Notes: generated by a model not told the origin, from the sequence alone. Positions 4,022 to 43,242 are shown, numbered from the stretch's first letter. The stretch is 64,000 nucleotides of DNA from Streptomyces sp. enrichment culture (GCF_964272895.1 NZ_OZ186833.1:60034-124033), one strand, 5' to 3'. A program made the numbers and translations.

Positions 4022-4084
4022 TCGGCCGTGAACGGCCTGCGGGGAGCGGGCGGACGGGCCGCCCGACCTGCGTCCCGTGACACA

Positions 4085-4154
4085 GGTCACCCGGACGGGA
4101 TATTGGCCTGCCGATGTCGCCCATGTCACTCTTACGGCACGCCTCCCCTGCCCA
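4085..4154 (+). promoter_or_regulatory. shared upstream motif, copy 1 (GGTCAC-N33-TGTCAC-N18-CTGCCCA), before adoK-metH-metF
   Basis: GGTCAC 4085, TGTCAC 4124, CTGCCCA 4148; same spacing as the copies at 17.7 kb and 43.2 kb. Confidence 0.65.
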
Positions 4155-4323
4155 GATCCCTTGCGGCACGGGCGAGTTGAACTCTGCTCCGGCCGCGGGC
4201 CGCATCGCCGCCCGCCGAGCCCCCGCTGAACCCCGCTCCGCCCCGAGGATCACCTCCGTGTGACGCCCGCAGGCGGAGCTTTTTCCGTTTCTGACACCGG
4301 CACCACGTTCAAGGAGTGCTTGC

Positions 4324-5303
4324 GTGCGTATCGCCGTGGCCGGGTCGATTGCGATCGACCAACTGATGGTGTTTCCCGGAAGCTTCGCCGACCAGCTGAT
4401 CGAAGGGCAGCTGGAGCATGTGTCCCTGTCGTTCCTCGCCGACCAGATGGAAGTGCGCAGAGGCGGGGTCGCCGCCAACATCGCCTTCGGACTCGGCCGA
4501 CTGGGCCTGACACCGTACCTGGTGGGCGCGGCAGGGGCCGACTTCGCCGAGTACGGCGCCTGGCTGCGGGCGGCCGGCGTGGACACGGACGCCGTGCGGA
4601 TCAGCGAGACCCTGCACACCGCCCGCTTCGTGTGCACCACGGACCGGGCGCAGAACCAGATCGCCACCTTCTACGCCGGTGCCATGGCCGAGGCCGCGAA
4701 GATCGACCTGGGTGCCGTGGCCGAACGCACCGGCGGCTTCGATCTCGTCCTCGTCGGCGCCGACGCCCCCGAGGCCATGCTGCGCCATACCGAGGCCGCC
4801 CATCGCGCGGGCATCCTGCTCGCCGCCGACCCCTCCCAGCAGCTCGCCCGCCTCGACGGACCGCAGGCCCGGCGCCTGGTCGACCGGGCACACCTGCTGT
4901 TCACCAACGAGTACGAGGCCGCCCTGCTGCGCGAGCGCACCGGCTGGAGCGAGCGGGACATCCTCGGCCGGGTCGGCACCTGGATCGTCACCCGCGGCGC
5001 CGAGGGCGTGTCGCTGTCGCGCTGCGGACAGCCCCGTACCGACATCCCGGCCGTACCGACGGAGCGCATCGCCGACCCGACCGGTGTCGGTGACGCGTTC
5101 CGGGCCGGGTTCCTCGCCGGCCTCGCCTGGGAGTGGTCCCCCGAGCGCGCGGCACGGCTCGGCTGCGCGCTGGCCTCCGTCGTCCTGGAGTCGGTCGGCA
5201 CACAGGAGTACAAGCTCCTCCCCGCCGACCTCCTGGAACGCCTGGAGCGCGCCTACGGCCGCGAGGCCGCCCTGGAGATCGAGCCACGTCTGGCAGGTGT
5301 GTC

Positions 5304-5307
<4 letters not shown>
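4324..5307 (+). CDS. adoK: adenosine kinase (PfkB family)
   Basis: MRIAVAGSIAID start, GGVAANIA, DPTGVGDAFRAG PfkB signature; coupled to metH. Confidence 0.88.
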
Positions 5308-8755
<3,448 letters not shown>

Positions 8756-8759
<4 letters not shown>

Positions 8760-9628
8760 GGGGGACGACGGGACCGACGCTGTCGTTCGAGTTCTTCCCG
8801 CCGAAGACCGCCAAGGGCGAGGAGAGCCTGTGGCGGGCCATTCGGCGGGTCGAACCGCTGGCGCCCGACTTCGTGTCCGTCACCTACGGCGCCGGCGGCT
8901 CCTCACGGCACCGGACCATCGAGGTGACCAAGCGGATCGTGTCCGAGACGACGCTGCGGCCGGTCGCGCACCTGACCGCGGTCGGGCACTCGGTGGCCGA
9001 GCTGCGGCGGATCATCGGGCAGTACGCCGACGCCGGCGTGCGCGATGTGCTCGTGCTGCGCGGGGACCCGCCCGGTGACCCCAAGGGGCCGTGGGAGCGG
9101 CATCCGCACGGGTTCGACTACGCCTACCAGCTCGTCGAACTGGTGCGGTCGCTGGGCGATTTCACCATTGGGGTCGCCGCGTTCCCGGAGAAGCACCCGC
9201 GCTCGCCCGACTGGGACAGCGACATCCGGCACTTCGTCGCCAAGTGCCGGGCGGGCGCGGACTACGCCATCACACAGATGTTCTTCGACGTGGAGGACTA
9301 TCTGCGGCTGCGCGACCGGGTCGTGGCCGCCGGCTGTGACGTGCCGATCATCCCGGAGATCATGCCGGCCACGGACGTACGCCAGATCCGGCGCTTCGCG
9401 GAGCTCTCCGACGCGGCGTTCCCCGAGGACCTCGCCCACCGTCTGGAGGGCGCCCGCGAGCGGCCCGAGGAGGCGCACGCGATCGGCGTCGAGTACGCCA
9501 CCGCCATGGCGGAGCGGCTGCTCGCCGAGGGCGCGCCCGGACTGCACTACATCACCCTCAACAAGTCCACGGCGGCCCTCGACATCCACCGCAACGTGCT
9601 GGACCGAAGGACCGTCCGCACCGGGTGA
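8756..9628 (+). CDS. metF: 5,10-methylenetetrahydrofolate reductase
   Basis: [31 protein letters not shown] motifs; ATG 8756 overlaps the metH stop. Confidence 0.96.
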
Positions 9629-9817: not shown

Positions 9818-10351
9818 TCAGCTGCTGGGGATCCAGTCCCGCTGGATGCGCGGGGTCTCGATGCTCAGCGAGCGCATGTGCTCGATCGGGTTGGTGTACT
9901 CGCGGCTGGAGACGATACGGCCGTCACTGAGGGTGAAGCCGTGGATGAAGTGGTTGCGGTAGTGGCCGTCGGGATAGCCGGGGAAGCGGATCGTGCCCTC
10001 GCCCTCGCACTCGACCCAGATGACCGCCGGGTCGTGCGTCTCGTAGATCTGCACGTTGAACCACAGCCAGTCCGGGAGCACCTTGAGGGACAGCTCACCG
10101 TGGTGCTTGAGGTTCTCGCGGCCCCTGACGACGATGGGACGGCCGATGTCGGTGTAGAAGAGGGCGGCGCTGCCGTCCTCGGTGTACAGGGTGTAGCGGT
10201 TGAGCCGAGCGTCGGGATCGGTGTCCAGGTACCTCTCCACCGCCTGGCGGTTGCGGGCCCGCAGGTCGTGGTGGTCGGTGAACGGGGACGGCGGCACAGG
10301 GCCTCTCGAGGGGTCGGAGGCCGTCGGGGAGGGAGCGGTAGCGGCAGTCAT
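9818..10351 (-). CDS. phzA: PhzA/B-family phenazine biosynthesis protein (second copy)
   Basis: RARNRQAVERYL, PDW.W.NV.I.ET.DP..IWVECEG.G, NHFIHGF, REYTNP; start may be 10351 or 10360. Confidence 0.9.
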   Translation of the reverse strand: MTAATAPSPTASDPSRGPVPPSPFTDHHDLRARNRQAVERYLDTDPDARLNRYTLYTEDGSAALFYTDIGRPIVVRGRENLKHHGELSLKVLPDWLWFNVQIYETHDPAVIWVECEGEGTIRFPGYPDGHYRNHFIHGFTLSDGRIVSSREYTNPIEHMRSLSIETPRIQRDWIPSS

Positions 10352-10364
10352 GGCGATCACGGCC

Positions 10365-11051
10365 TCACGGCTGGAGACGGCTGATGTGCCAGCCGTCGTC
10401 TGTACGGTCGTAGCGCAGCCGCTCGTGCAGCCGGTCCGTGCCGTTGGCCCAGAACTCCACCGAGGTCGGCTCGATCCGGTACGCCACGAACGTCTCGGGG
10501 CACGGCAGCGGCTGCCCGGTGGCGCCCAGCTCCAGCGCCTTGGCGCGCAGTTCCTCGAACTCGTCGAGGTCCCTGAACGGCTTGCTCTGCCGGGAGGCGG
10601 TGGTCATCGCGTGCGTGTAGACGGCCCGCTTGAACCACAGCGCCTCCGCCTCGGCGCGGGACAGCAGACGCACCGGCCCGGCCAGCGTGATCTGCTGGCT
10701 GGTCTCGCGCCAGTACAGGACCCCGGAGGCCCACGGGTTCTCGGCGAGCTCCCGGCCCTTGCGGCTGTCGGCGTGGGTGATGATGTCGATCCCGGCGGCC
10801 GACACGGCGTTGATCGCCACGATGCGCGAGGACGTGCGGCCCTGGGCATCGGCGGTCGCGAGGGCCAGGGCCCGCGGTTCGCGCACCTCGTTCGCCACGG
10901 CGTCCTGCAGCCACTGCACGAGCAGCCCCATCGGCTCGGCGGGCGGGGTGACGAACTCGGGGAAGTCCACCGCGAGGGTGGCCGTCATCGTCTCGGAACG
11001 GGTGCTGCCGGGGCCGGCGTGCGTCACCTTTCCGTTCGTTGCCTCAGACAT
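10365..11051 (-). CDS. phzG: phenazine FMN-dependent oxidase (PNPOx family)
   Basis: REPRALALATAD, SRKGRELAENPWASGVLYWRETSQQI, RLHERLRY; ATG 11051 overlaps the phzF stop. Confidence 0.93.
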   Translation of the reverse strand: MSEATNGKVTHAGPGSTRSETMTATLAVDFPEFVTPPAEPMGLLVQWLQDAVANEVREPRALALATADAQGRTSSRIVAINAVSAAGIDIITHADSRKGRELAENPWASGVLYWRETSQQITLAGPVRLLSRAEAEALWFKRAVYTHAMTTASRQSKPFRDLDEFEELRAKALELGATGQPLPCPETFVAYRIEPTSVEFWANGTDRLHERLRYDRTDDGWHISRLQP

Positions 11052-11880
11052 GCAGCACTCCTTCCAATGTGACGACACCATGGCCCGAGACCTCCACGGT
11101 CTCGACGTGGTCGCCCTCTCCGTGCACGAGAGCGCCCATGGGAGAGGGACGGCCGATCTCGACGCCCTGGGTGATCTCGATGTGTTCGCCGTAGGCGCCC
11201 AGGCCGTGGCGGGCGATGTGGATGGCGATGGGCCCGGCGGCGGAGCCGGTGGCGGCGTCCTCCACGACTCCGTACGCGGGCGAGAACATGCGGTTGCGCC
11301 ACCGCGTCCCGGACCCGGCGATGCAGTTCGTCGCCATGTCCGGGAAACGGGCCAGCGCACGGTGGTCCGGGTCCAGCTTGGACAGCGCCTCCACGCTCTC
11401 CAGGGTGACCAGGACATGGCGCGGGCCGTTGCGGTAGATCTCGACCGGGAGCGTCGAGGCACCGATGCCGAGCGCTTCGAGGAGTTCGTCCGCGCGGTCG
11501 AACGGCTCCCACACGGGCACCGGCTGGCGCATGCGGGTCGCCACGACCGTGCCGTTCTCCCGCTCCAGCTCGAACGGGATGATCCCCATGGCGGTCTCGA
11601 TCCGCAGCCGGTCCGCGTCCGTGCGCCGGCCCAGCGCGATGGCCGTGCCGAGCAACGGGTGGCCCGCGAAGGGGAGTTCGTTGACCGGGGTGAAGATCCG
11701 CACGTGGTGGTCCGCGCCCTGCTTGGGCTCCAGGACGAACGTGGTCTCCGAGAGGTTCATCTCCCGCGCGATGCGCTGCATCTGCTCGGCGGTCAGGTCG
11801 TCGCTGGCGAAGAACACCGCCACGGGATTGCCGGTGAGCGGCACCCGCGCGAACGCGTCGACGACGACGTACTGGTGCAT
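11044..11880 (-). CDS. phzF: trans-2,3-dihydro-3-hydroxyanthranilate isomerase
   Basis: VDAF..GNPVAV, RIFTPVNELPFAGHP, EDAATGSAAG. Confidence 0.96.
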   Translation of the reverse strand: MHQYVVVDAFARVPLTGNPVAVFFASDDLTAEQMQRIAREMNLSETTFVLEPKQGADHHVRIFTPVNELPFAGHPLLGTAIALGRRTDADRLRIETAMGIIPFELERENGTVVATRMRQPVPVWEPFDRADELLEALGIGASTLPVEIYRNGPRHVLVTLESVEALSKLDPDHRALARFPDMATNCIAGSGTRWRNRMFSPAYGVVEDAATGSAAGPIAIHIARHGLGAYGEHIEITQGVEIGRPSPMGALVHGEGDHVETVEVSGHGVVTLEGVLHV

Positions 11881-11925
11881 CTGTTCTCCCACTTGTCTTG
11901 GTGCTGCGGCCGATGGCCGCACAGG

Positions 11926-13836
11926 TCAGGCCGGGTCGGGGACGCGGTCCGGCACGACCAGACCGGCCAGGGCGGTGCCCAGGATGCGCGGCCCGTCCTG
12001 AGTGAGAACGGACTCCGGGTGGAACTGCATCGACGCGAAGCCGGGGCCCCGCAGGGCATGGACCTCGCCGGTCGCCGGATCACGGCTGACGCGGACCCGG
12101 CCCAGGCCCTCGGCGGTGAACTCGTCGTCCTCGCTGACGAGGGCGAAGGTGTTGTAGAAGCCGACGTGCTCGGCGCTGCCGAACAGGTCGATCCGCTTCT
12201 GCACCCCCTGGTTGGGCACCGTCCGGCGGCGCAGCGGCAGACCGAGCCCGAGGCCGAGGACCTGGTGGCTGAGGCACACGGCGAGGAACGGGCGCCGCTC
12301 ACGCAGCAGGGTGCCCACCGCGGTGTGCAGATGGTGCATCTTCGGGTGCGCCCTCTCCTGCGGGTCGCCCGGCCCCGGCCCCATGACGACCAGGTCGTGG
12401 CCCTCGAAGGCGTAGTCCTCGTCGAAGCGGCGGACCGTCACCCGCAGGCCGAGCGAGCGCAGCTGCTGGTCGAGCATGGAGGTGAAGGTGTCCTCGGCGT
12501 CCACGACCAGCACACTGCGCCCGGCCAGCTCCGGCCGGCCGGCCGCGAAGGCGTCGCGGCCCGCGAGCCAGAAGCCGGCGATGGAGTCGTTGCGCAGCCC
12601 GAGGGCCTCGCGCACGCTGGGGTGGTCGGCGAAGCGCTGCGGTCCGCCGCCGCCGAGGGCCGCGACGAGCCCGGCCGCCTTGGCGCGGGTCTCCGCGGCC
12701 TCGGAGGCCGGATCGGAGTGGCGCACGATGGTGGCGCCGACGCCGATCCGGAGCCGTCCGGCCGGGCTGATGTCCGCGGTGCGGATCAGGATCGCGGAGT
12801 CCATGACCCGCTCGCCGGCGTCGTCGCGGCCGATGAGCGCGGCGACCCCGCTGTAGTACTCGCGGCCGCCGGGCTCGAACTGGGCGATGGTGCGGCAGGC
12901 GCTCTCCAGCGGGCTGCCGGTGACGGTCGGCGCGAACATGGTCTCGCGCAGGATGTCGCGTACGTCGCGGTCGGTGCGGCCCTCGATGAAGTACTCGGTG
13001 TGCGCGACCCGGGCCATCTCCTTGAGGTAGGGCCCGACGACCCGGCCGCCCTCGGGGCAGATGCGGGCCATCATCTTCAGTTCCTCGTCGAGGACCATGT
13101 ACAGCTCGTCGGTCTCCTTGCGGTCGTCGAGGAACTCCAGGACGCCCGACAGGGTGGGGCCCGACGCCGGATAGCGGTACGTGCCGCTGATGGGGTTCAT
13201 CACGGCCGTACCGCCCTCGAGGCTGACGTGCCGCTCGGGCGAGGCGCCGACCAGGGTGCGGGTGCCGGTGTGCACCAGGAACGTCCAGTGGGCGCCGGAC
13301 TCGCCCTGCAGCAGCCGGCGGAACAGGGCCGGGGCGCTCAGCGGGCCGTGGTCGGTGATGTCGGCGACGAAGGTGCGCTTGATGACGAAGTTGGCGCCCT
13401 CGCCGGTGCCGATCATCTCCTTGACGATGCGGCGCACCAGGTCCTCGTAGGCGTCGTCGTCGACGTCGAAGCCGCCGCCGGCGAGCGTCGTGGGGACGTC
13501 CGGGATACGGGCGAGGGCCTCGGCGAGCGGCAGCCGCTGCTGGCCGGTGACGGTCATCGCCACGAGCGGTGTGCCGTCGTCGGCGCAGGCGAAACCGCGC
13601 TCGGACAGCTGCCGGTAGGGCATGAGGGCGAGGACCTCGTGCCGGGCGCCGGTGCCGGCGGCCGGGGCCGGGGGCAGCGGGATGTCGGCGAGGGTCGCGG
13701 GCTGGGACACGGTGCCCGTCAGGACCTCGACCGCGCCGGGGCCCGTGGTGGTGGGCCGGTGCAGCAGGGCGTAGGGCTGCGACGGTTCGTCCAGCACCTT
13801 CTGGAGCAGATCGGTGTGCGGATCGGCGTGCGTCAT
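11926..13836 (-). CDS. phzE: 2-amino-2-deoxyisochorismate synthase (MST plus GATase fusion)
   Basis: [32 protein letters not shown]; GATase GPGPG, AVCLSHQ, QFHPES. Confidence 0.96.
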
Positions 13837-14456
13837 GCGAACAGCCCCTTGACCGTGGTGACACGGGCACAGCGCTCGGCGGCGTAGGTGAGGGCCGAGC
13901 GGTGGTAGTCCTCGGAGAAATCGGCGGTGGCGTCGGCGACGAAGAACGGCTGGATGTCGTTGGTGAACGCGTCGACCGCGGTGGCCAGCACCCCGACATG
14001 GGCGTAGACGCCGCACAGGATCAGCTGGTCGCGGCCGGCGGCGCGCATCCGCTGGAGCAGGTCGGTGCGGAAGAAGGCGCTGTAACGCCACTTGGTCAGC
14101 AGCCAGTCCTCCTCGCCCGGTGCGAGGGCGTCGACCACCTGGCGGTCCTCGGGCGTGGCGCGCATACCGGGGCCCCAGAAGTCCTTGAGCAGACCGCGCT
14201 GTTCGTCGGTCATGCTGCCCGGCTGGGCGGTGTAGGCGACGGGGATGCCGAGCGCGGCGCACTGGTCGCGCAGCTGGGCCGCGCCTCGCACCAGGTCCTG
14301 GCGCAGCGGTTCGGGCAGCGGAGCGAGGAAGTAGCGCTGCATGTCGTGGACGAGAAGGACGGACCGGTCGGGTTCGGCCTTCCAGGACACGGCGGCCGAC
14401 GGCAGGTCGCCCTCGGTGGGCAGCGGGTACGCGGAGATGGAAGGTATGCCGGTCAT
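13833..14456 (-). CDS. phzD: isochorismatase-family ADIC hydrolase
   Basis: [27 protein letters not shown]. Confidence 0.96.
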
Positions 14457-14485
14457 GGCTCCAGTTCCTGGCTCGGGCAGGTGGC

Positions 14486-15673
14486 TCAGGCGGTCCAGGC
14501 GGAGATCACGGACACGGCCTGCCACGGGGTGAGGCGGGGGTCGCAGAACGAGGTGTAGCGCTCGCCCACGGAGTCGAGGTCGTCCTTGCAGCCGGCGCAC
14601 TCGGTGACGTCGTCGGGGGTGGTCTCCAGGTGCACCCCGCCGGGGACGCCGCCCGCGCCGCGCACGGCGTCGACGAACCGGGACAGCTCCAGGGAGATGG
14701 TCTCCACCATCCGCGTCTTGTGGCCGCTGGGCGCGGTGACGGTGTTGCCGTGCATGGGGTCGGTGAGCCAGATGGCGCTGTGGCCCGCGCCGCGCACGGC
14801 CTCGACGAGGCGCGGCAGCCGGTCGGCGACGACATCGGCGCCCATGCGGGCGATGAGGGTGAGCTTGCCCGGGTCGCGCCAGGGGTCCAGCCGCTCGCAC
14901 AGGGCCAGCAGTTCCTCGGGCTCCATGCCGGGGCCCACCTTGCACGCCACCGGGTTGGCGACCTGGGACAGCAGGGCGACATGGGCGCCGTCGACCTGGC
15001 GGGTGCGCTCGCCGATCCACGGCCAGTGTGTGGAGCCGAGGAACATGCGGCCCTGGTCGTCCATGCGCAGCATGGGGATCTCGTAGTCGAGGAGCAGTGC
15101 CTCGTGGCTCGTCCACACCAGCGGCTCGACGACGTCACGGCCCGCGGCGCGTTCACGCCAGCCCAGGTGTTCGATGATGTCGCTGGCGGCCATGTAGCCG
15201 GTGAGCATGCGCAGCGGGTCGGCCTGGCGGCTCTCCGGGTCGGCTTCCGGGCCGTTGACCATGTGGCCGCGGAACGAGGGCAGGGTGATGCCGTCGACGA
15301 CCTCGGTGTCGCTGGAGCGCGGCTTGGCGAACTGACCGGCGATGCGTCCAACGCGCAGCACGGGCTTGCCGGTGATCAGGCCGAGCGTCCCGGCGAGCAG
15401 GTCGAGCACCGCGGCCTTGCGCGCGACATGGCGGGGGGTGCATTCCTGGGGGTCCTCGGCGCAGTCTCCCGACTGCACCACCATGGCCTCACCGAGGGCC
15501 ACCTTGCCGAGCAGGGTGCGCATGGTGGCCACGTCGTCGGGGTGCACGAGGGTGGGGCGGGTCGCCAGTGCCTGGCTCACCCTGCTCAGTTGGGAGAGGT
15601 CGCTCCACTTGGGCTGCTGCACGGCCCCTCGGGCACGAATCTCCCGTATGACGTCTTTCACGACGTCCTTCAT
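14486..15673 (-). CDS. phzC: class II DAHP synthase
   Basis: [38 protein letters not shown]. Confidence 0.96.
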
Positions 15674-15726
15674 GTACGAACTCCGATCCCAACGGTGATG
15701 TCGTGCCGGTCAGGTGCTGCGCGGGG

Positions 15727-16215
15727 TCAGGTGGGTATGCCCTTGCGCTTGATCTCCGGGACGGGAATCCCGAGCGAGCGCAGCTGCTCGAACGGGTTCA
15801 TGAATTCGCGCTGCCGCTTGATCTTCCCGTTCTCGAATTCGAAGGAGTGCAGGAAGTGGTTCTCGTAGAAACCCTCGGGGTAGTCGGCGAAGCGGATCTT
15901 CCCGTGCCCGTCGCACTCCACCCAGAAGTGGTTGGGGTCGTCGGTCTCGAAGATCTTGACGTTGTACCACTCCCAGTCGGGGAAGCATTCCAGCGACCAG
16001 ACGGCGTGCTCGGCGAGGCGGTCCCTGCCGTTGATGACGATGGGGGCGCCGGTGTCGGTGGTCCACAGGCCGCCGCAGCCGTCCTCGGTGAACAGCTCGT
16101 GCCGACGCAGCCGGTCCTGCCCCTTGGTGTTCATGTACCGCTCGACGATGGCGCGGTTGCTGCGGCGCAGCTCCGCCTCGTCGCCGAATGCCCCGGAGGT
16201 GACGTTCTCGGACAC
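15727..16215 (-). CDS. phzB: phenazine biosynthesis protein PhzB
   Basis: DRLRRHELFTEDGCGGLWTTDTG, EHAVWSLECFPDWEW, REFMNP; GTG start. Confidence 0.95.
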   Translation of the reverse strand: MSENVTSGAFGDEAELRRSNRAIVERYMNTKGQDRLRRHELFTEDGCGGLWTTDTGAPIVINGRDRLAEHAVWSLECFPDWEWYNVKIFETDDPNHFWVECDGHGKIRFADYPEGFYENHFLHSFEFENGKIKRQREFMNPFEQLRSLGIPVPEIKRKGIPT

Positions 16216-16266
16216 TGACTGCTCCCTGTCTGTCTTTTCGTGTGTCTGTGCGCAGGAACTGGACGA

Positions 16267-16298
16267 ACAACAAAAGCGGCCCCGTGGCCGGGACCGCT
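16267..16298 (-). terminator. intrinsic terminator between aroC and phzB
   Basis: Minus strand AGCGGUCCCG-GCCA-CGGGGCCGCU followed by UUUGUUGUU. Confidence 0.7.
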
Positions 16299-16322
16299 CG
16301 ACTCTCGGTAGATCGGACGACG

Positions 16323-17507
16323 TCAGCGGATGGTCAGCCGGTCGAGGTACGAGGTGACGTTGCGCCGTGTCTCGGCCACGCTGTCGCCGCCGAACTTCTC
16401 CGCGACCGCGTCCGCGAGGACGAGCGCGACCATCGCCTCGGCGACGATGCCGGCCGCCGGCACCGCGGAGACGTCGGAGCGCTGGTGATGGGCCTGCGCG
16501 GGCTCCCCGGTGGTGACATCGATGGTCTTCAGCGCCCGCGGCACCGTCGCGATCGGCTTCATCGCCGCCCGCACCCGCAGCAGCTCACCGGTGGACAGGC
16601 CACCCTCCGTACCACCCGCGCGACCGGAGACACGCCGGATACCCTCGGGCGTCTTCACGATCTCGTCGTGCGCCTTGGAACCGGGGACACGGGCCAGCTC
16701 GAAACCGTCACCGATCTCCACGCCCTTGATGGCCTGGATGCCCATGAGCGCACCGGCCAGCCGCGCGTCCAGCTTGCGGTCCCAGTGCACATGGGAGCCG
16801 AGACCGACCGGCACGCCGTAGGCCAGCACCTCGACCACACCACCGAGGGTGTCACCGTCCTTGTGCGCCTGGTCCACCTCGGCCACCATCGCCTTCGACG
16901 CGTCGGCGTCCAGGCAGCGCAGCGGGTCGGCGTCCAGCTTCTCCACGTCGGCAGGCGTCGGGTAGACACCCTGCGGGGCCCTCACCGAGCACAGCTCGAC
17001 CACATGCGAGACGATCTCGATGCCGGCCGTCTCCTTCAGGTACGAGCGCGCGACCGCCCCCAGCGCGACGCGGGCCGCGGTCTCACGGGCGGAGGCACGC
17101 TCCAGGATCGGACGGGCCTCGTCGAAGCCGTACTTCTGCATGCCCGCCAGGTCCGCATGGCCCGGACGCGGCCGGGTCAGCGGGGCGTTACGGGCCAGTT
17201 CGGCGAGCTCGCCCGGATCCACCGGGTCGGCCGCCATGACCTTCTCCCACTTCGGCCACTCGGTGTTACCCACCATGATCGCGACCGGAGAGCCGAGAGT
17301 CAGGCCGTGCCGGACACCACCGAGAAAGGTGACCTCGTCCCGCTCGAACTTCATCCGCGCACCACGGCCGTAACCGAGCCGGCGCCGGGCCAGGTGATCC
17401 GCCACCATCTCCGTCGTGACCGGCACGCCGGCGGGAAGGCCCTCCAGCGTCGCCACCAGTGCGGGACCGTGCGACTCCCCCGCGGTCAGCCAGCGCAAGC
17501 TGCTCAA
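16323..17507 (-). CDS. aroC: chorismate synthase (cluster copy)
   Basis: [37 protein letters not shown]; TTG start after a GGGGGAG RBS. Confidence 0.96.
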
Positions 17508-17650
17508 TGGTGCTCCCCCGTGAAGTCGGTCCTCCTGGCCTTGTCGAAGCCGCCGGCGACTCCGAAATCGATGTCTCAAGGAGTCTCGCCCAGTGGCCGG
17601 AAACAGCCGATTGGGAGTTTCCTTCGCCGACCGACTCGCTGCCACGGAAA

Positions 17651-17726
17651 TGTTTTTGGGCAGGGGGGGCTCTCAGAAATCGTGACACAGGCAGCACCGG
17701 CCGACCAAGGGCACTCGGAGGTGACC
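17651..17726 (-). promoter_or_regulatory. shared upstream motif, copy 2, before the aroC-phz operon
   Basis: Minus strand GGTCAC-N33-TGTCACGATT-N14-CTGCCCAAAAACA; overlaps a GTGACC-TG-GGTCAC palindrome at 17721-17734. Confidence 0.7.
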
Positions 17727-17905
17727 TGGGTCACTTGACCAGCCACTATGGGTATGTGACGAGCCGTCAGGACGAAAGTGCGTACCCTAAATGACAGGGG
17801 GCGCGGAGCACGAACTTCCCTAGCGAACATCAAACGGTTCTTGAATTCCTCTCCATTCTGCCGGCGGGCGATAACTCGTGCGGGGCGGTGAGTGAAGTGC
17901 GCGCC

Positions 17906-28923: not shown

Positions 28924-29553
28924 ATGGTGTATCACTTATGCCTCAGAAATCACAGCCAGGAACTCCCCGCAGCCACCGGGTCCGTCCTCTGCCGCTCCTG
29001 CATCAGGCAAGTGGAGAGCAACCTGCGCGCGCTTCCCGGCCTGTACCAGGAGAGCCTGCACCACGTAGCACCCATCGCCCGGCGGGTGAACCAGACCAGA
29101 GTGTCCGGCAGCCGCAACCGGGACCGCCTCGACCTGTCCGTGCTCGACGCCAGGAACAACATCATGACCATTCTGGAGTCATGGTCGGTGTTCGTCACGG
29201 AAAAGCTCGGAAATGACGCCCCCGCGCGATCGGTGCCCAACCTTTCGCGCTTTTTGCTGCGCCATCTCGAATGGCTCGTCGCACAGCCTCCGGCCGCCGA
29301 TTTCGCCGACGAGATCGACGGCCTGAGACTGGAATTGCTGCACACGATCGACCCCGCTCCGGGTGAACATCACGTGTCCAGCAGGGAGTGCGTCGTGGAC
29401 GACTGCACAGGGACGATCAACACCTCACCGCAACGTATCGGAAACACAGGAAAGAGAAGCATCCAGTGCAGCTCGGGACACACATGGGAAATGCACGAAT
29501 GGATCACTCTGCGTCCGCTCATGGAGCGGCAGCGGAAGGCCGTCAGCACATGA
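28924..29553 (+). CDS. OvmZ/PpzV-like Cys-rich putative regulator; TTA at codon 5
   Basis: LCRSC, LPGLYQE, ILESWS..V, FLLRHLEWL, C-terminal CVVDDC..CSSGH.W; coupled to a small HTH gene. Confidence 0.7.
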   Translation: MVYHLCLRNHSQELPAATGSVLCRSCIRQVESNLRALPGLYQESLHHVAPIARRVNQTRVSGSRNRDRLDLSVLDARNNIMTILESWSVFVTEKLGNDAPARSVPNLSRFLLRHLEWLVAQPPAADFADEIDGLRLELLHTIDPAPGEHHVSSRECVVDDCTGTINTSPQRIGNTGKRSIQCSSGHTWEMHEWITLRPLMERQRKAVST

Positions 29554-29732
29554 GCAGACCGCCACGCCACCGGCTGGTGCCCACGAACGTGGCCGCCCTC
29601 GCCGCAGGTGTGTCCGAGGCGACGATCCGCAAGTGGGTCAGCCGCGGCAAGATCACCCGGTACGGCAGGCCGGGCCGCTCCGAGTTCGACATCGACGAAC
29701 TGACCCAGATCGCGCTGAGCCGACAGCGCTGA
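29550..29732 (+). CDS. OvmW-like 60-aa HTH (MerR/excisionase-type) protein
   Basis: AALAAGVSEATIRKWVSRGKI; ATGA overlap with the upstream gene. Confidence 0.75.
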   Translation: MSRPPRHRLVPTNVAALAAGVSEATIRKWVSRGKITRYGRPGRSEFDIDELTQIALSRQR

Positions 29733-33981: not shown

Positions 33982-35052
33982 TCAGGCGAGCTTGGTGGCG
34001 GACAGAACGGCTTCCACGGTGAGGGCGTGCGGCGGCAGGTTCGCCGGGTCGTCGGTGACGGCCTTGGTCACCTTGAAACCGGCCTCTTCGAGCCAGCTCT
34101 GCCACGTCGAGAGCTTCTGCGGGCCGCCCTGGCCCATCGTGCAGCCGATGAAGAAGCTGGGATAGAAATCGACGGTGTAGTTCTCGGTGTCGGTGATGTC
34201 CTCGGGGAACACCGGAACCAGCGCGTGCACCTGCGCACCGGGCTCCAGGGAGTCGTACACGCCCTTGAGGATCCGCAGTACGTCGCTCTTGTCGAACATG
34301 GGCAGGAAGTGCTTGATCAGCACGACGTCGAAGCCCTTGGGAACCTCTTCGAAGACATCGCCGCCGATGAACGCGCAGCGGTCCTCGACGCCGTGCGCCC
34401 GGAAGTTCTCCAGGCTCTCCTGCTCCTTCGCCGGAAGGTCGAAGTTGGTCACGTGCAGGCCGGGGGAGTCCTTCAGCCGCAGCGTGTTGATGGCCCCGAG
34501 CCCGGTGTTGCCGGCCAGGTCGAGCACCTTGGACCCGGCCGGGATGTCGACGTTCTCGAAGAACCAGGGGTCCACATGGGCGGTGACGGTGTTCATCAGC
34601 TTCGCCCACGGCTCGCGCAGCTCCGGCAGCTTGCCCAGTGCGCTGTAGAGGTCACCGTCGAGGCCGTACAGCTCCTTCAGACCGGCGACCGTGCCGGTGC
34701 GCACGCTCTCGGTGAGGTAGAACAGCTGGCGCAGCGTGACCGCCTTGATCATGTTCAGGTCGGCGAGGGCCTGCTGGAGCAGCTCGTCGGAGACACCGGC
34801 GAGCCCGTCCAGGGAGTAGGCGCCGGATTCCTCGTCGCGGGCGACGAAGCCCTCCTTGACCAGCAGGAGCAGCAACTGCTCCACGGCGTCCGGCTTCGCG
34901 CCGGCCACCTCGCCCAGCTCGGCCGCCGTCAGGCCGGGCCGGTCGCGCAGCGCGTCGATGATGCCCAGCTCGAAGCAGGACACCAGGGTCATGAACCGGG
35001 AGGGTCCCACCATGTAGTCACGGAATCGAGCGAGCGTGGCTTCCGGTGTCAT
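33982..35052 (-). CDS. SAM-dependent methyltransferase (Fur6/Fnq27-like)
   Basis: Dimerisation helix plus VLDLAGNTG, GGDVF, LIKHFL; context matches the fur gene order. Confidence 0.8.
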   Translation of the reverse strand: MTPEATLARFRDYMVGPSRFMTLVSCFELGIIDALRDRPGLTAAELGEVAGAKPDAVEQLLLLLVKEGFVARDEESGAYSLDGLAGVSDELLQQALADLNMIKAVTLRQLFYLTESVRTGTVAGLKELYGLDGDLYSALGKLPELREPWAKLMNTVTAHVDPWFFENVDIPAGSKVLDLAGNTGLGAINTLRLKDSPGLHVTNFDLPAKEQESLENFRAHGVEDRCAFIGGDVFEEVPKGFDVVLIKHFLPMFDKSDVLRILKGVYDSLEPGAQVHALVPVFPEDITDTENYTVDFYPSFFIGCTMGQGGPQKLSTWQSWLEEAGFKVTKAVTDDPANLPPHALTVEAVLSATKLA

Positions 35053-35247
35053 AGCAACCGAGCCCTTTCGGTGAGGGGAAGTGGTCTGTTGTGCAAGGCG
35101 CCCGGCAGACCCCGCCGGCCGGTCGGCCGCGGTCGGGCCGACGCGGCACGAGGCGAGCGGCGGGGGAGTGAGCGGGGAGCGGCGTGACGGGGGTGGCGCT
35201 GCTCCCCGCCGGCTTCGGGGCGGCGCCGACCGGCGCGGGCGGGCGGG

Positions 35248-36459
<1,212 letters not shown>

Positions 36460-36562
36460 GGCACTCCAAGACATGGGTGGGTGAACACAAGGAAAAAGCG
36501 CAGGTGGTGCGCCCGGACCCCGGGTCCGCGCACACCACCTGCGATCAGGTCGGGCACTTACC

Positions 36563-38149
36563 TCACGTGCGGTCCCGGATCCGGTCCTTGAGCCGGTCCG
36601 CCAGAGCCAGCCGCTGCACCTTCAGCGTGGCGGTGCGCGGCAGCTCGGCCTCCGGGATCTGCACCGGATCGGCCAGCTGCGGGAAGTCGGCCACGGCCGC
36701 CCGCCAGCGCGCCAGGTCCAGCGGCCTGTCGCCATGGGTGCAGATCACCGGGACCGCCTCGGAGTCGGGCCCCTGCACCACGACCAGCTCGCTCAGCTCG
36801 TCCAGCTTGCCGAGCACGACGTCCTCGATCTCCAGGGAGCTCTTCACCCCCGGGATCATGTCGACCTCGCGGTCCAGCATGTGCAGGCAGCCGAACTTGG
36901 TGAAGTAGCCGACGTCGCCGGTCCCCCACCACTCGCCCTTGCGGTTGCTGTCGTAGCGCTCCTGCTCGCCGTGGTACGTCTTGGCGATGCCCGGCCACGC
37001 GACCTCGATACGGCCGGGGTTCTGCTCGGTCGGACGCGACCCGTCGCGGCTGACGACACGGACCTTCGCCGCGCCCAGCGGCATCTGCCAGCCCACGCAC
37101 CGCCCGTTCGCCTTGTGGGCGGAGTGACGGAAGTAGGCCCGGCCGACCGCGGGCCCGACCTCGCTCTGGCCGTAGATCTGGAAGAACAGGGCGCCACGCC
37201 GGTAGGACGCCTTGAGCAGCTTGCTCATCGTGCCCGGGTGGATCGCGTCGAAGGTGCTGCTGAAGACCTTCACCGACCCGAACGGCGCCCGCGGGTCGTC
37301 GGCCAGCCCCTCCCACTCCATCAGCGAGTTCGGCAGGGCCTCGATGAGCACCGGCCGGTGCTCCAGCAGATGCTCGGCGACCACGGCCGGATCCGTCTCC
37401 CGCATCAGCAGGACCGGGTACTCCTTGAGCAGCGCCAGCGACATCGCCGCGACCATCCGCGAGTGCACGAACGGCACATGGATGGCGACCGTCTCCTTCT
37501 TGCGCAGCAGGGACAGCAGCCGCCACTGCGGCACGAGCCGGATGCCCTGGGTGCGCGGCGTGTGCACCACGAGCTTCGGGATGCCGGTGGTGCCGGAGGT
37601 GTGCGTGATGACCGCGGCCTCGTCGATCGGCCGGACCACCGGCTTGACCCGCGGCGAGCCCGCGAGGTCGCCCAGCGAGATCGACCCCGGCCGGTCGCCG
37701 GCCGAGGTGATCACCCGCTGGGTGAGGTCCGTCAGCGGCACGTCCGCCAGCAGATCCAGCTTCGTCCCGTCGGTGAGCAGCGTCGGCCGCCCCACCCGCT
37801 GCAGCAGCACACCCACGGTCGCGGGGTCCAGGGCCGGCGAGAGGTTCACGACGATGGCGCCGATACGGGAGACCGCGGCCGCGAGCATCCAGTGATCGGC
37901 GTTGGCCGTCTTGTAGATCACGACGTGGTCGTCGGGCCGGACCCCGGCCGCCCACAGCCGTGCGGCCAGATCGGCCACGTGCTCGGCGTACCGGGCGACC
38001 GTCAGCCGCCGCCCCGCCTCCGGCAGGACGTCCAGGTCATGGTCCAGGACGATCGGCGTCGACGGGTTCACGGCCGCGGCCATCTCCGGCAGGAGGCCGA
38101 TGTGAAGACCGCGCTTCTGTATCGATTGGTAGGCCACAGAGCCCTTCAT
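36563..38149 (-). CDS. ANL-superfamily AMP-forming ligase (Fur5-like, probable diazotase)
   Basis: [20 protein letters not shown] motifs; position in a fur-like operon. Confidence 0.8.
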
Positions 38150-38285
38150 GGGGACTGTCTCCTTTGCGGTGAGCGAATGGGCGTGCGGGCTGTCGCCGGC
38201 GCCGTGCGCGCTGTGCGGAACACACGACGGACACCGGGGACGCTGCGGCCCGTTGTGGATTGCGGGTGCCGGAACTGGCCGCGGA

Positions 38286-38336
38286 AAAGGCCGTGGCGGT
38301 GGCCGCCGGCAGAACCTGCCGGCGGCCACCGCCACG
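38286..38336 (-). terminator. strong hairpin after wrbA
   Basis: 21-bp perfect stem 38292-38312/38316-38336, followed on the minus strand by GCCUUUUCC. Confidence 0.75.
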
Positions 38337-38390
38337 ACCGGGGCTTCGACCCGCCGGCTCGCCTCGACCGAGGCGACGCCGGCCTACGGG

Positions 38391-39011
38391 TCAGGAGGCG
38401 CGGCCCGCCTTGATGGCGGCGGCGAACTCCACGACGCGGCGCGCCTGGTGACGGGCCGCCTCCAGGGTCACCTCGCTGGGGCCGCCCAGGCTGCCGCCCG
38501 GCCCCGAGACGTGCGAGACGCCGTACGGGTTGCCCGTCTGGGAATGGACCGGGTCGGTGTAGCCGGGCGGCACGATGATGCCGCCCCAGTGGTAGAAGGT
38601 GTTGCTCATCGCCAGGATGGTGGACTCCTGACCGCCATGGGCGGTACCGCTCGCGGTGAAGGCCGAGCACACCTTGTCGGCGAGCGTGCCCTGCTGCCAC
38701 AGCGGACCGGTGGTGTCGATGAACGCCTTCAGCTGGCTGGCCAGGTTCCCGAACCGGGTCGGGGAGCCGAACAGCAGCGCGTCCGCCCAGGCCACGTCCT
38801 CCAGAGCGGCCTCCTGGACATCGGCGGTGTCCTCGATGTGCCGGGCCCACGCCGGATTCGAGCCGATCGCCTCCGGCGGAGCCAGCTCACGGACCTTGCG
38901 CAGCCGCACGGTCGCACCGGCCTTCTCCGCGCCCTCTGCGGCGGCCTGCGCCAGGGCGTGGATGGTGCCGGTGGCGCTGTAGTAGATGATCGAGACGTTC
39001 ACGGGGGCCAT
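38391..39011 (-). CDS. wrbA: NAD(P)H:quinone oxidoreductase, WrbA type
   Basis: YYSATG, FGSPTRFGN, AHGGQEST, GNPYG. Confidence 0.92.
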   Translation of the reverse strand: MAPVNVSIIYYSATGTIHALAQAAAEGAEKAGATVRLRKVRELAPPEAIGSNPAWARHIEDTADVQEAALEDVAWADALLFGSPTRFGNLASQLKAFIDTTGPLWQQGTLADKVCSAFTASGTAHGGQESTILAMSNTFYHWGGIIVPPGYTDPVHSQTGNPYGVSHVSGPGGSLGGPSEVTLEAARHQARRVVEFAAAIKAGRAS

Positions 39012-39038
39012 CGGGGCTCCTTCTGTGTCTGCCGGCCG

Positions 39039-40034
39039 CTACCGGGCGACGACGACGGTGGCGGGCGGGGCCGAGTGGAACGAGATGTCCTCGAAGCCGG
39101 CCTTGACGAGCCAGTCGCGGTAGTCCGCCTGGCGCCAGGTGCTGCCGTGCTTGCTCTTCAGCAGCATCTCCGAGGCGAAGATCAGCGGGAACGCGGGGCC
39201 ACTGCGGTCGTCGTCGACGACGTAGTCGCAGACCACCAGGGCACCGCCCGGCTTGAGCGCCTGCCGGAGCCTGGTGAACACCTCCACGTTGTCCTCCGGT
39301 CCCTCCTGGTGCGCGATGTGGGAGTAGACCGCCACGTCGTACTGCGCGGTGCCGAAGTCGGTGGTGTGGAAGTCACCGTTGACCGTGGTGAACCGGTCGC
39401 CGACACCGTGCTCGTCCAGCAGCCGGCGGGCGATCGCGTTGATCGGCTCCCAGTCCAGCTGCGTGGCGCGGGCCGCCGGATTGCTCTGCAGCCAGATCCG
39501 CGAGTAGATGCCGGAACCGCCGCCCACGTCCAGGATCGACACCTCACCGGCGTCGGCCAGACCCAGCACCTCCGCGGCGATCCCCGCGGCCGGCACCGAC
39601 TGCGCGGCGATCGCCTTGACGATCTCCTCCCAGTGCCGGTTGTTCGCGACCTCCACGACCACGTCCTTGACCGGCCCGCCGACCTTGACCACCTCGGCCA
39701 GATCGGCCAGCGCGCCCATGTGGCTCAGCTTCAGCCGGGCGAAACGCGCCAGCGACACGGGAGTGTCCTCGACCAGGTAGAGCGCGGCCTCCGGCGTATT
39801 GCGGTAGCGGCCCTCGACCAGCTCGACCAGGCCCACACTGACCAGCCCGTCGAGCAGCGTCTGCGCGCCCCGCTCGGAGATCTCGGCGCGGGCGGCCAGC
39901 TCCGACGCCGTGCCCGCACCGTTCTCCAGATGGGTGAACAGCGAGTACGTGGACGCGGCGGCGAGGACACCGGTCGACCAGTAGCCGTTGATCAGCTGCA
40001 TGATGCGGTCGGGCGTCACCTGTTGATTCGTCAT
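39039..40034 (-). CDS. SAM-dependent methyltransferase (Fur4/Fnq9-like)
   Basis: ILDVGGGSG, GDFH, YSHIAH; N-terminal dimerisation domain. Confidence 0.85.
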   Translation of the reverse strand: MTNQQVTPDRIMQLINGYWSTGVLAAASTYSLFTHLENGAGTASELAARAEISERGAQTLLDGLVSVGLVELVEGRYRNTPEAALYLVEDTPVSLARFARLKLSHMGALADLAEVVKVGGPVKDVVVEVANNRHWEEIVKAIAAQSVPAAGIAAEVLGLADAGEVSILDVGGGSGIYSRIWLQSNPAARATQLDWEPINAIARRLLDEHGVGDRFTTVNGDFHTTDFGTAQYDVAVYSHIAHQEGPEDNVEVFTRLRQALKPGGALVVCDYVVDDDRSGPAFPLIFASEMLLKSKHGSTWRQADYRDWLVKAGFEDISFHSAPPATVVVAR

Positions 40035-41197
40035 GCCGCCCCTCCCAGGGCTCGGTTGGACGCCGAGTGGGTCCGCACCGCGCGGCGCAGGGCGGCCACG
40101 ACGCGCTCGACCTGATCCGGCGTGAGCTCCGCGTGCATGGGTATCGCCATCTGGCGGGCGAACAGATCCGCCGAGACGGGACACGTCTGCTTGGTCTCGA
40201 ACACGGGCTGCACATGCGCCGCGAACGTGCCGTGCCCGCAGCCGATGCCCTGGCCCCGCAGCTCGGCGGCGACCGCGGCACGGTCCACGCTCGCGTCCAG
40301 CGTCACCATGTACGTCTGCCAGGCGTGGGTGCGGTCCTGCGGCACCTGCGGCAGCGCCAGCAGCTCCTCGTCGGCGAGCAGCTCGCCGTACTGCGCGGCG
40401 ATCGCACTGCGCCGCTGGAGCAGCTCGTCGATCCGGCCGAGCTGCACCTGGAGGATCGCCGCGGCGATGTCGGACAGCTTGAAGTTGTAGCCGATCTCCG
40501 TGAACGTCGGGATCGGCAGGCCGACCACGTTGCCCATGTCGAAGATGGAGCCGATGCCGAAGGACGAGCGCAGCCGCACGTCCTTGCCGACCGCCGGATC
40601 ACGGGCGAGCAGCGCACCGCCCTCACCACTGCTGGCGCCCTTGCGCCCGTGGAAGGACAGACAGCCCACCTCGGCGAGCGCACCGGCCTGACGGCCCTGG
40701 TACGTCGCCCCGACCGCGCAGGCCGCGTCCTCCACGAGGAACAGCCCGTGCCGGTCGGCGATCGCCTGCAGCTCGGTGTAGTCGGCCGGCATGCCGACCG
40801 TGTCCACCGCGATCACCCCGACGGTGCGCGGGGTGACCAGATCGGCCACCGCCTGCGGGTCGATGGTGTACGTGTCGGGCCGTACGTCGGCGAAGACCGG
40901 CGTGGCGTCCATGTAGCGCACGGCCTGCGCGGGCGCCGGGAACCCGTAGTCGGCGACGATCACCTCGTCGCCGGGCTTGACGCCGAGCGCCAGCATCGCC
41001 AGATGCAGCGCGGCACCGCAGTTGCTCACCGCCACGGCGTCCGCGACACCGTACTTCTCGGCGAGCTGCGCCTCCAGCGCCTTGCCCTTGGGGCCCTGGC
41101 CGGCCGGCCAGCCGGAGGCGAACACCTCCGCGACGGCTTCCAGTTCCCGCTCACCCAGGCTCGCGTGAACCAGGGGGATCGATTCCACCGCGGTCAC
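40031..41197 (-). CDS. PLP aminotransferase, DegT/DnrJ fold (Fur3/NphE-like 8-aminoflaviolin synthase)
   Basis: VEDAACA, SFHGRK..SSGEGG, GYNFKLSD; GTG overlaps the momA stop. Confidence 0.88.
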   Translation of the reverse strand: MTAVESIPLVHASLGERELEAVAEVFASGWPAGQGPKGKALEAQLAEKYGVADAVAVSNCGAALHLAMLALGVKPGDEVIVADYGFPAPAQAVRYMDATPVFADVRPDTYTIDPQAVADLVTPRTVGVIAVDTVGMPADYTELQAIADRHGLFLVEDAACAVGATYQGRQAGALAEVGCLSFHGRKGASSGEGGALLARDPAVGKDVRLRSSFGIGSIFDMGNVVGLPIPTFTEIGYNFKLSDIAAAILQVQLGRIDELLQRRSAIAAQYGELLADEELLALPQVPQDRTHAWQTYMVTLDASVDRAAVAAELRGQGIGCGHGTFAAHVQPVFETKQTCPVSADLFARQMAIPMHAELTPDQVERVVAALRRAVRTHSASNRALGGAA

Positions 41198-41763
41198 CTC
41201 CTCTTCTGCTGCTCGTTCGTTTCCTGTCCGGGGATCCAGGTGGCCGACGGCGGGTCGTAGCGCAGCGGCGTCAGCTGGGTGACGTCGTAGCGCTTGCGCA
41301 TGTCCTCCACGGCCGCCGCGTCGACGGCGGTGCCGCGCGACCAGATCTCCGCGATCTCCTCGAAGTAGTCCTCGTGCACGGGCGACGGGAAGCACTGGAA
41401 GAGCATCGTCACCGGCTTGTCCGTGGCGTTGCGGAAGGCGTGCGGCATGCCCGGGGGCACGAACATGCAGCCGCCCGCGCCCGCCCGCACGACCTTCTGG
41501 CCGTCGGCGGACACCCACTTGTGCCAGTCGCTCTCCGTGCGCTCGGTCGGCTCGAAGCACAGCAGGTCGAGCTCGCCGTCCAGGACGTAGAAGAACTCCT
41601 GGGCGTCGCCGTGCACATGCGCTCCGACGTCGAATCCGGGTGGCACGAACACCTCGAAGATCGACACGGAGGAGCCCATCTCACGGGTGGCCTTGAAGGT
41701 CACCTCCTGTGCCGGGGTGATCAGTTTCCGCCCCGCCCCCGCCGGAAGGATGAGGTCAGTCAT
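41194..41763 (-). CDS. momA: cupin THN monooxygenase (flaviolin-forming)
   Basis: VGAHVH..AQEFFYVLDGE, FVPPG.PHAF; directly downstream of the type III PKS. Confidence 0.85.
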   Translation of the reverse strand: MTDLILPAGAGRKLITPAQEVTFKATREMGSSVSIFEVFVPPGFDVGAHVHGDAQEFFYVLDGELDLLCFEPTERTESDWHKWVSADGQKVVRAGAGGCMFVPPGMPHAFRNATDKPVTMLFQCFPSPVHEDYFEEIAEIWSRGTAVDAAAVEDMRKRYDVTQLTPLRYDPPSATWIPGQETNEQQKRR

Positions 41764-41796
41764 ACGTCTCGCTTCCTTGTTCCCTGCGAGGGGGCT

Positions 41797-43167: not shown

Positions 43168-43242
43168 TGTTTTTGGGCAGCGAAGGTGTGAGGGAATCGT
43201 GACACGTGCGGAGTACCGCAGCCAAGGCCGCTCTGGGTGACC
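43168..43242 (-). promoter_or_regulatory. shared upstream motif, copy 3, before the rppA operon
   Basis: TGTTTTTGGGCAG (43168-43180) and AATCGTGACAC (43195-43205) are identical to 17651-17663 and 17678-17688 with the same 14-nt spacer. Confidence 0.7.

Follow-up and report, generated by a model that had tools for sequence, protein, structure and literature searches.

The DNA considered here is a 64,000-nt stretch from a Streptomyces sp. enrichment culture (hereafter the window, C2:60034-124033), located on the smaller contig, C2 (141 kb), of a 7.68-Mb genome whose larger contig is C1 (7.54 Mb). Within it, a spaced sequence motif that precedes the S-adenosylmethionine (SAM) cycle, phenazine, and tetrahydroxynaphthalene (THN) operons is the core of a module of approximately 100 bp with fixed order and orientation (85 copies aligned), and a further copy on the same contig precedes the mevalonate operon. 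This is very probably one shared, oriented cis-regulatory module that controls transcription. We read its copies, with a probability of about 0.6, as weak sigma-HrdB-type promoters with an extended -10 element that depend on the regulator pair OvmZ/OvmW via TGTCAC and (C)TGCCC boxes, with an accessory palindrome. With four such promoters, one signal would turn on the supply of core, prenyl donor, and methyl donor together; the hybrid cluster would be wired through a single promoter module serving both cores, polyketide and phenazine, as well as the supply of prenyl donor (mevalonate) and methyl donor (SAM cycle).

A preliminary description of this DNA had claimed identical motif arms and spacing upstream of aroC-phz and rppA, and the exact pattern TGTTTTTGGGCAG-N14-AATCGTGACAC is indeed found at both sites (17651-17688 and 43168-43205), with no third match in the window when as many as three mismatches are allowed and no match at all in 100 shuffles. 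The copy ahead of adoK shares the architecture in transcript orientation (ATGTCACTCTT-N14-CTGCCCA at 4123-4154), and GGTCAC precedes TGTCAC by 33, 32, and 33 nt in the window copies, both as had been described. The reported distance of 150-310 nt to the start codons is likewise borne out, CTGCCCA lying approximately 150 nt from that of aroC, 310 nt from that of rppA, and 170 nt from that of adoK. All three copies are intergenic and directed at their operons, and the likeness among the copies reaches beyond the three boxes, over some 100-150 nt. The statement that there is no further full copy holds for the window and fails beyond it, where a fourth lies at C2:44731-44798 (minus strand), about 15.3 kb to the left and upstream of the mevalonate operon. 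The motif is far from frequent genome-wide: TGTCAC-N18-CTGCCCA has four matches, all on C2 and none in the 7.54 Mb of C1, the longer form with GGTCAC likewise has four, all on C2, and a profile built from many copies returns the same four sites (E ≤ 1e-19), the best match on C1 reaching only E = 1.2. Since the four copies are all on C2, the operons that the motif marks belong, all four, to a single hybrid meroterpenoid/phenazine cluster. The sequence analysis supports the proposal of a shared, uncharacterised element heading the SAM, phenazine, and THN operons, and extends it to the mevalonate operon; that a single factor activates all four we infer.

Among other genomes, the module recurs in dozens of Streptomyces species. 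The exact pattern was searched in a genus sample of 400 genomes and gave true copies in 12 others, mostly two to four in each and about 10 kb apart, against approximately 0.1 matches per genome for a reversed-pattern control run over 401 genomes. A scan of a species-level genome collection added copies from many named Streptomyces, Kitasatospora, and Streptacidiphilus, such as S. aculeolatus and S. antibioticus DSM 40234, and 85 distinct copies from these three genera were aligned (alignment A3). Copies invariably face their downstream gene, and for 23 of 26 copies a same-strand homologue of a cluster gene starts no more than 3 kb downstream, for 20 of these no more than about 630 nt. Across the 85 copies, the downstream gene is rppA in 27, mevalonate kinase in 20, ABBA prenyltransferase in 13, cupin and aroC in two each, and adoK, polyprenyl synthase, and aminotransferase in one each, with no class given for 18. 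Because the copy preceding adoK occurs in this window only (1/85) and aroC copies are rare, a meroterpenoid regulon seems to have recruited the SAM-cycle and phenazine operons at a later stage. Chance likeness, or the recent spread of a repeat or mobile element that plays no part in regulation, is effectively refuted; its only support is that the sequence is repeated, while the shuffles gave no match, the copies across dozens of species occupy orthologous positions ahead of operons of the same types and always face genes, and those from different genomes are 67% identical ahead of the same operon type vs 62.5% ahead of different types.

The aligned copies begin with a palindrome, GTGAC-N4-GTCAC, present in 75 of the 85 when up to two substitutions are allowed and separated by 12 bp (64 copies) from a -35-like hexamer, TTGGCG, that is exact in 53 copies and has a nearly invariant TTG. 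The spacer from this hexamer to CACNNT measures 17-18 bp in 84 of 85 copies, and CACNNT forms part of an extended -10-like TGT-CACNNT whose A2 and T6 are invariant (85/85). There follow a conserved stretch, TTC.GCACGCCT.CC, a nearly invariant downstream box ending in CTGCCCAAAA, and, after a gap of approximately 15 nt, a 3′ arm, GGCRGNGGATTGAG, with conservation dwindling by about +70. CTGCCC is invariant and CCCTGCCCAAAA nearly so, a conservation that owes partly to how the search was built. The three boxes first reported are real; their roles are re-read here, and the TTGGCG-like hexamer, conserved as well as those boxes, was absent from the original list. In our reading, GGTCAC is the right arm of the palindrome, TGTCAC most plausibly joins TGn to the leading half of a -10 hexamer, and CTGCCCA sits 3′ of the -10. 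To our knowledge, the module boxes are unlike the ARE, Rex, AdpA, and PHO consensus sequences. The consensus also contains GTCACT twice in direct orientation, at about -53 and again 39 bp further on at about -14, and an imperfect inverted repeat, TTGGC at -36 with GCCCAA at +11.

Each copy would thus represent the control region of an activator-dependent, housekeeping-type (sigma-HrdB/sigma-70) promoter, in the order palindrome (centered at approximately -55), 12 bp, TTGGCG, 17-18 bp, and TGn-CACNNT. The putative extended -10 retains the critical A-11 and T-7 and is otherwise poor; transcription would start about 7 nt after it, near a conserved GCAC, and CCCTGCCCAAAA would form an early transcribed box at about +8 to +19. 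Four such promoters would drive the mevalonate, SAM-cycle, shikimate/phenazine, and THN operons. We consider the -35/-10 parse likely; the position of the start, the kind of sigma factor, and the contact site of each protein are inferred. Known extended -10 (TGn) promoters of the sigma-70 type share the TTGnnn-17/18 bp-TGn-nAnnnT arrangement and a dyad centered at about -55. Unlike them, the module has C rather than T at -12, a TGTCAC that is wholly invariant, beyond the needs of a sigma factor, and the extra box at about +8 to +19.

The loci around distant ovmW genes (58-70% identity) represent other cluster types, several of them syntenic with type II polyketide synthase (PKS)-like genes. 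Near these genes, 14 sites of the form TTGACN-N14/15-TGTCAC(G/A)CT-TTT..CGGCGG were found, each with a same-strand open reading frame downstream; they mostly carry (C/A)TG(T)GCCC 18-21 nt after TGTCAC, and the palindrome is absent. This sister form, TTGACN-N15-TGTCACRCT, is of a TTGACN/TGTCACGCT type vs the TTGGCG/CTGCCCAAAA type of the meroterpenoid module. Because the sister family carries a near-consensus TTGACA at equal spacing, the upstream hexamer appears to be a genuine -35, which supports the sigma-70-type parse. The sister promoters further suggest that TGTCAC and the TGCCC box constitute a family-wide signature, with the palindrome specific to the meroterpenoid subfamily. Of the 400 genomes searched, 89 match TTGAC-N16-TGTCACNNT, and 11 genomes together contain 22 matches that are no farther than about 21 kb from an ovmW-like gene. 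Where at least three matches share a contig (G056, G069, G207, G272, G318), ovmW is always there too, and one site commonly lies about 200 nt downstream of it. As a separate observation, a single-copy site, TTGAC(G/T)GCC..CGACCGGCG(A/G)CTGTCACGAT, with a similar -35/TGTCACGAT arrangement, is widespread in Streptomyces in non-cluster contexts unlinked to ovmW (for example, G317:C10:364403, G373:C1:1509776, and G296:C1:1291723).

The shared factor is most likely the translationally coupled OvmZ/OvmW, which would comprise a 60-aa helix-turn-helix (HTH) binder and a Cys-rich partner, and TGTCAC and (C)TGCCC would be the likeliest determinants of recognition, with the palindrome as an accessory site of the meroterpenoid subfamily. 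The place at which the pair binds is the least secure of these proposals. Of the three candidates named in the preliminary description (OvmZ/OvmW, a LysR, and an altered ECF41), co-occurrence across genomes strongly favours this pair. In the 400-genome sample, the module is present in all 22 genomes whose OvmW-like protein reaches 72% identity or more (12 by exact pattern and 10 by profile R1, a sequence-only covariance model used to score modules in genomes; homologues 72-90%). At 58-70% identity, one of 20 genomes does, 11 kb from its ovmW, and in the absence of an OvmW-like protein none of 30 does, apart from two marginal matches (E of approximately 0.008). The pair adjoins the module in 24 loci fetched for comparison, typically in the order ovmZ-ovmW, module, mevalonate operon, with pairs beside modules showing 77-89% identity for OvmW and 49-66% for OvmZ. 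Small clusters with the ABBA prenyltransferase only and no rppA, mevalonate, or phz genes nearby (G076, G336, G275) have ovmZ/ovmW together with variant modules that retain the core and lack the palindrome; the regulator is therefore separable from the biosynthetic genes. For the LysR, an orthologue lies near the module in one other genome only, and as a general factor it was rejected, its orthologues being missing from most module loci or unlinked.

Published genetics of the family points the same way. OvmZ and OvmW are interdependent activators whose co-expression turns on PovmOI in S. coelicolor, and they cross-activate a silent angucyclinone cluster of another species (PMC9440138, PMC11264864). 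The pair occurs in 387 records, most of which are PKS clusters of type II or type III, 75 being type III (PMC11264864), and short OvmZ homologues coupled to OvmW are found in the nap, epa, phz, and tyl clusters (PMC8910723). Deletion of ppzV, which encodes an OvmZ homologue related to Fnq22, NapU1, Fur18, and EpzV, abolishes prenylated phenazines and spares the phenazine core, and its authors proposed PpzV as an activator of prenyltransferase and/or mevalonate genes (PMC3326630). This phenotype fits the commonest positions of the module, ahead of prenyltransferase and mevalonate genes. In the OvmZ/OvmW systems already studied (PovmOI of oviedomycin and the S. neyagawaensis angucyclinone), a domain-less Cys-rich protein is likewise coupled to an HTH protein of 60-80 aa, both proteins are required, and they activate promoters of biosynthetic operons even heterologously; the homologues NapU1, Fur18, Fnq22, and EpzV/PpzV reside in meroterpenoid and phenazine clusters (PMC11264864, PMC8910723, PMC3326630). 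No DNA target or promoter motif is described for any OvmZ/OvmW member in the literature searched (PMC9440138, PMC11264864, PMC8910723), nor is the element described in literature searched by gene names and conserved promoter motif in these clusters. The present analysis differs from the published systems in defining a candidate cis-element, in a meroterpenoid form (TTGGCG, palindrome, CTGCCCAAAA) and a sister form. The domain content agrees with published accounts of the family (PMC11264864), in that OvmZ has no Pfam family and OvmW only weak HTH_17/MerR matches; OvmZ has no sequence homologue in the PDB. The ovmZ-like gene is probably bldA-dependent, because its fifth codon is TTA; this rare codon lies at 28936-28938, and homologues elsewhere lack Leu at that position.

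Several observations weigh against this reading. A strict scan for the sigma-70 consensus (-35 TTGACN, 16-18 bp, -10 TANNNT) found no promoter in the aroC region, which we take to mean that the promoters are weak rather than absent. The most conserved stretch of the module lies 3′ of the -10, an unexpected place for a classical activator and the main unexplained feature, and the parse of TGTCAC-N18-CTGCCC as -35 and -10-like elements is equally good in geometry. The co-occurrence of module and pair is partly confounded by their common cluster membership, and a Foldseek search with the AlphaFold model of OvmZ (pLDDT 72) gave no significant match that would hint at a mechanism; the published suggestion of a TetR-like OvmZ, and a sigma-like fold, are both unsupported. 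In 19 of the 22 module-bearing genomes, the cluster contig also carries an orthologue (76-92%) of the SARP at C2:30791-31576. Finally, in the mfq hybrid cluster, overexpression of a SARP alone activates both pathways, and the small HTH gene overexpressed alone has no effect (PMC12814520).

In a further version of the mechanism, OvmZ/OvmW would not be a classical upstream activator and would instead act at or after promoter melting, through TGTCAC, which overlaps the -10, and (C)TGCCC at about +10. It would then be a sigma-appropriating or split sigma-like factor, or would grip the first 45 nt or so of the nascent leader (the CCCUGCCCAAAA hairpin) and license elongation across the long biosynthetic operons. 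This version of the mechanism is doubtful; if true, it would be a new mode of pathway-specific activation in several hundred actinobacterial clusters. For a pathway-specific promoter motif, specificity elements at and after the -10 are an unusual feature.

The alternative geometry belongs to a different proposal, in which TGTCAC is a -35 and CTGCCC a -10 for an alternative sigma factor, either ECF41-like or a split sigma-like OvmZ/OvmW, with the start in the A run after CTGCCC. ECF41-type -35 elements read TGTCACA, two ECF-like genes are encoded nearby, and the interdependence of OvmZ and OvmW resembles that of two-subunit sigma factors. ECF41 (SigJ-type) promoters, TGTCACA-N16-CGTC, share the TGTCAC hexamer with the module, which likewise has ECF/SnoaL sigma genes nearby. 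In contrast to those promoters, CGTC at N16-18 occurs in none of the 85 copies and TGTCACA in only four, which disfavours the ECF41 of the preliminary description; the supposed spacer is itself conserved, and there is the extra TTGGCG hexamer. T9 of TGTCACNNT is invariant with TTGGCG/TTGACN exactly 15 bp upstream, as a sigma-70 -35 and extended -10 would have it, and the OvmZ model lacks a sigma-like fold. The ECF-like sigma was rejected as a general factor, its orthologues lying near the module in only three other genomes, and deletion of mfqQ, a sigma-SnoaL gene, leaves meroterpenoid production unaffected (PMC12814520). We regard an alternative sigma factor as very unlikely.

A SARP, either that at C2:30791-31576 or the one adjacent to the mevalonate module, could bind the promoter directly, leaving OvmZ (together with OvmW) as a helper or lower tier, in the manner of TylS and TylU. 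SARP genes on C2 number four, all to the left of the window, three in tandem at C2:27694-31576, the last of which is that at 30791-31576, and the fourth at about 45316-46230, divergent from the mevalonate module. Promoters controlled by SARPs (ActII-ORF4, DnrI, AfsR, TylS) resemble the present ones in having a cluster-wide repeated element and weak core promoters that need a pathway activator, and a SARP is linked to most of the module's clusters. SARP boxes are heptamer direct repeats with 11-bp phasing that overlap the -35. Profile autocorrelation of the module returned top offsets of 39, 25, 45, and 20 bp and none of 10-12 bp; unlike SARP promoters, it has no phased repeats around the -35, and its most conserved part lies at and 3′ of the -10. 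The three genomes with ABBA-only clusters have modules and ovmZ/ovmW with no linked orthologue of the SARP at C2:30791-31576, which is missing in G275 and megabases away in G076 and G336, while orthologues of at least 75% occur in five module-negative genomes. The SARP beside the mevalonate module (about 45.3-46.2 kb) was rejected as a general factor; only 8 of the 22 genomes have an orthologue, and it often lies megabases away from their cluster. In tylosin biosynthesis, TylU is thought to help the SARP TylS (PMC8910723). OvmZ and OvmW alone activate their target promoter in S. coelicolor (PMC9440138). Direct control by a SARP is unlikely as a replacement for OvmZ/OvmW, and the mfq data are compatible with a cascade from SARP to OvmZ/OvmW or with co-activation. 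Within the OvmZ/OvmW mechanism, the cluster-linked SARP is a possible partner or upstream tier, acting beside or above the pair.

The perfect 5-N4-5 palindrome and the conserved element over the presumed start occupy classical repressor positions, and TetR- and MarR-family genes are present within the window, so that a cluster repressor of either type on one or both sites, with joint de-repression of the operons, was considered. It is highly improbable: no TetR or MarR orthologue consistently accompanies the module, the core remains where the palindrome is missing (in ABBA-only variants and sister promoters), and genetic work on OvmZ homologues speaks for an activating role (PMC3326630, PMC11264864).

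At 150-310 nt the leaders are long, their conservation extends to about +70, and their 5′ end could form a hairpin with a CAAAA-containing loop that is bound by a protein or ligand and steers elongation, antitermination, or stability. A 9-bp hairpin, YNCCCUGCC/GGCRGNGGR, is 72% paired vs 36-56% in slid controls, with 32 double-sided changes vs 18 ± 4 in shuffles and a covariation score of 0.152 vs 0.125 ± 0.009; it includes many U.G and G.U pairs, which are workable on the sense strand only, and many single-sequence folds contain it. Against this, RNAalifold returned no consensus structure for the leader at +1 to +52 or +37 to +105, folding z-scores are weak (about -0.8) and equal on both strands, and 58 of 89 sequences leave the middle pair open. 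The whole window has nothing at gathering score in Rfam 15, the scan of the aroC region found no terminator-like element, the distance to the start codon varies widely, and the sister promoters from clusters with distant ovmZ/ovmW pairs show no evident hairpin of this kind. As the explanation of the module, an RNA leader has slim prospects; the leader may have some role as RNA. A second hairpin in the -35/spacer region (UUGGCG...CGCCAA), spotted by eye, was rejected at a folding z of about 0 on both strands. Also rejected was the palindrome as part of a longer covarying stem, the flanking pairs being 41-81% complementary with no clear covariation, and its core looks like a sequence-specific dyad. 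In E-value mode, the sole Rfam match is to the DUF3800-XI sRNA and falls on the palindrome (17723-17744, 16.6 bits vs a gathering score of 37.8, E = 0.16); it was judged to be due to chance.

OvmZ/OvmW pairs have already been used to wake silent clusters, and the module offers a concrete candidate for their target, complete with boxes, geometry, and natural variants. The subfamily-specific forms could be swapped against cognate and non-cognate regulator pairs, and the module may serve as a genome-mining handle for operon starts and as a set of co-regulated promoter parts for refactoring.

Table 1. Module copies, regulator genes, and target operons, in window coordinates. Roles of module parts follow the proposed parse.
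Feature	Coordinates	Strand	Basis
adoK-metH-metF (SAM cycle) module copy	4077..4176	+	exact pattern, profile, alignment
adoK copy, palindrome GTGACACAGGTCAC	4077-4090	+	
adoK copy, -35-like TTGGCC	4103-4108	+	
adoK copy, TGTCACTCT	4124-4132	+	
adoK copy, CTGCCCA	4148-4154	+	
aroC-phz module copy, from palindrome through 3′ arm of leader inverted repeat	17635..17734	-	exact pattern, profile, alignment with 84 other copies
aroC copy, palindrome GTGACCCAGGTCAC, about -62 to -49 in the proposed parse, right arm GGTCAC	17721..17734	-	
aroC copy, -35-like TTGGTC (family consensus TTGGCG)	17703..17708	-	alignment
aroC copy, TGT-CACGAT, proposed extended -10 (TGn plus hexamer), the TGTCAC box first described	17679..17687	-	
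aroC copy, CTGCCCAAAAACA box, about +9 to +21 if the start lies some 7 nt after the -10	17651..17663	-	
rppA (THN) module copy	43152..43250	-	exact pattern, profile, alignment
rppA copy, palindrome (degenerate)	43237-43250	-	
rppA copy, -35-like TTGGCT	43220-43225	-	
rppA copy, TGTCACGAT	43196-43204	-	
rppA copy, CTGCCCAAAAACA box	43168-43180	-	
rppA copy, 3′ arm GGTAGTGGA	43152-43160	-	
ovmZ-like gene, 209 aa, Cys-rich, no Pfam family, TTA at codon 5	28924..29553	+	
ovmW-like gene, 60 aa, MerR/HTH_17-type helix-turn-helix, ATGA overlap with ovmZ stop	29550..29732	+	
Target operon 1: adoK (PfkB kinase), metH, metF	4324..9628	+	Pfam
Target operon 2: aroC, phzB, phzC (DAHP synthase), phzD, phzE, phzF, phzG, phzA	9818..17507	-	Pfam
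Target operon 3: rppA, cupin, aminotransferase, methyltransferase, flavodoxin-like, AMP-ligase, metK, O-methyltransferase (candidate 3′ limit)	33982..42864	-	Pfam
rppA (type III PKS), first gene of long same-strand operon	41797-42864	-	Pfam

Genes in the window were assigned with Pfam. Those of the THN operon are all on one strand and 3′ of the module. The mevalonate operon contains seven genes, encoding GHMP kinases, diphosphomevalonate decarboxylase, a type-2 IPP isomerase-like protein, HMG-CoA reductase, HMG-CoA synthase, and a KAS III-like protein, and an Orf2/ABBA prenyltransferase lies near the mevalonate operon copy of the module.

The neighbourhoods of ovmZ/ovmW vary in some genomes. 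At four loci (L170, L172, L173, and L174, in G296, G283, G223, and G191), ovmZ-ovmW is followed after a gap of about 76 nt by a mevalonate kinase gene with no module between, and the regulators and the mevalonate operon appear to be co-transcribed there, with modules elsewhere in the cluster. In the source genome, there is neither a second ovmZ/ovmW pair nor a module at the right end of the contig (C2:130-136 kb, beyond the window), and homologues of the genes in that region adjoin distant ovmZ/ovmW pairs (OvmW 66-69%) at L179, L180, and L182. G106 has two sets of module, ovmW, and linked SARP (C1, about 219 kb and 11.905 Mb), mirrored at the ends of a 12.1-Mb contig, and the whole cluster therefore lies in terminal inverted repeats.

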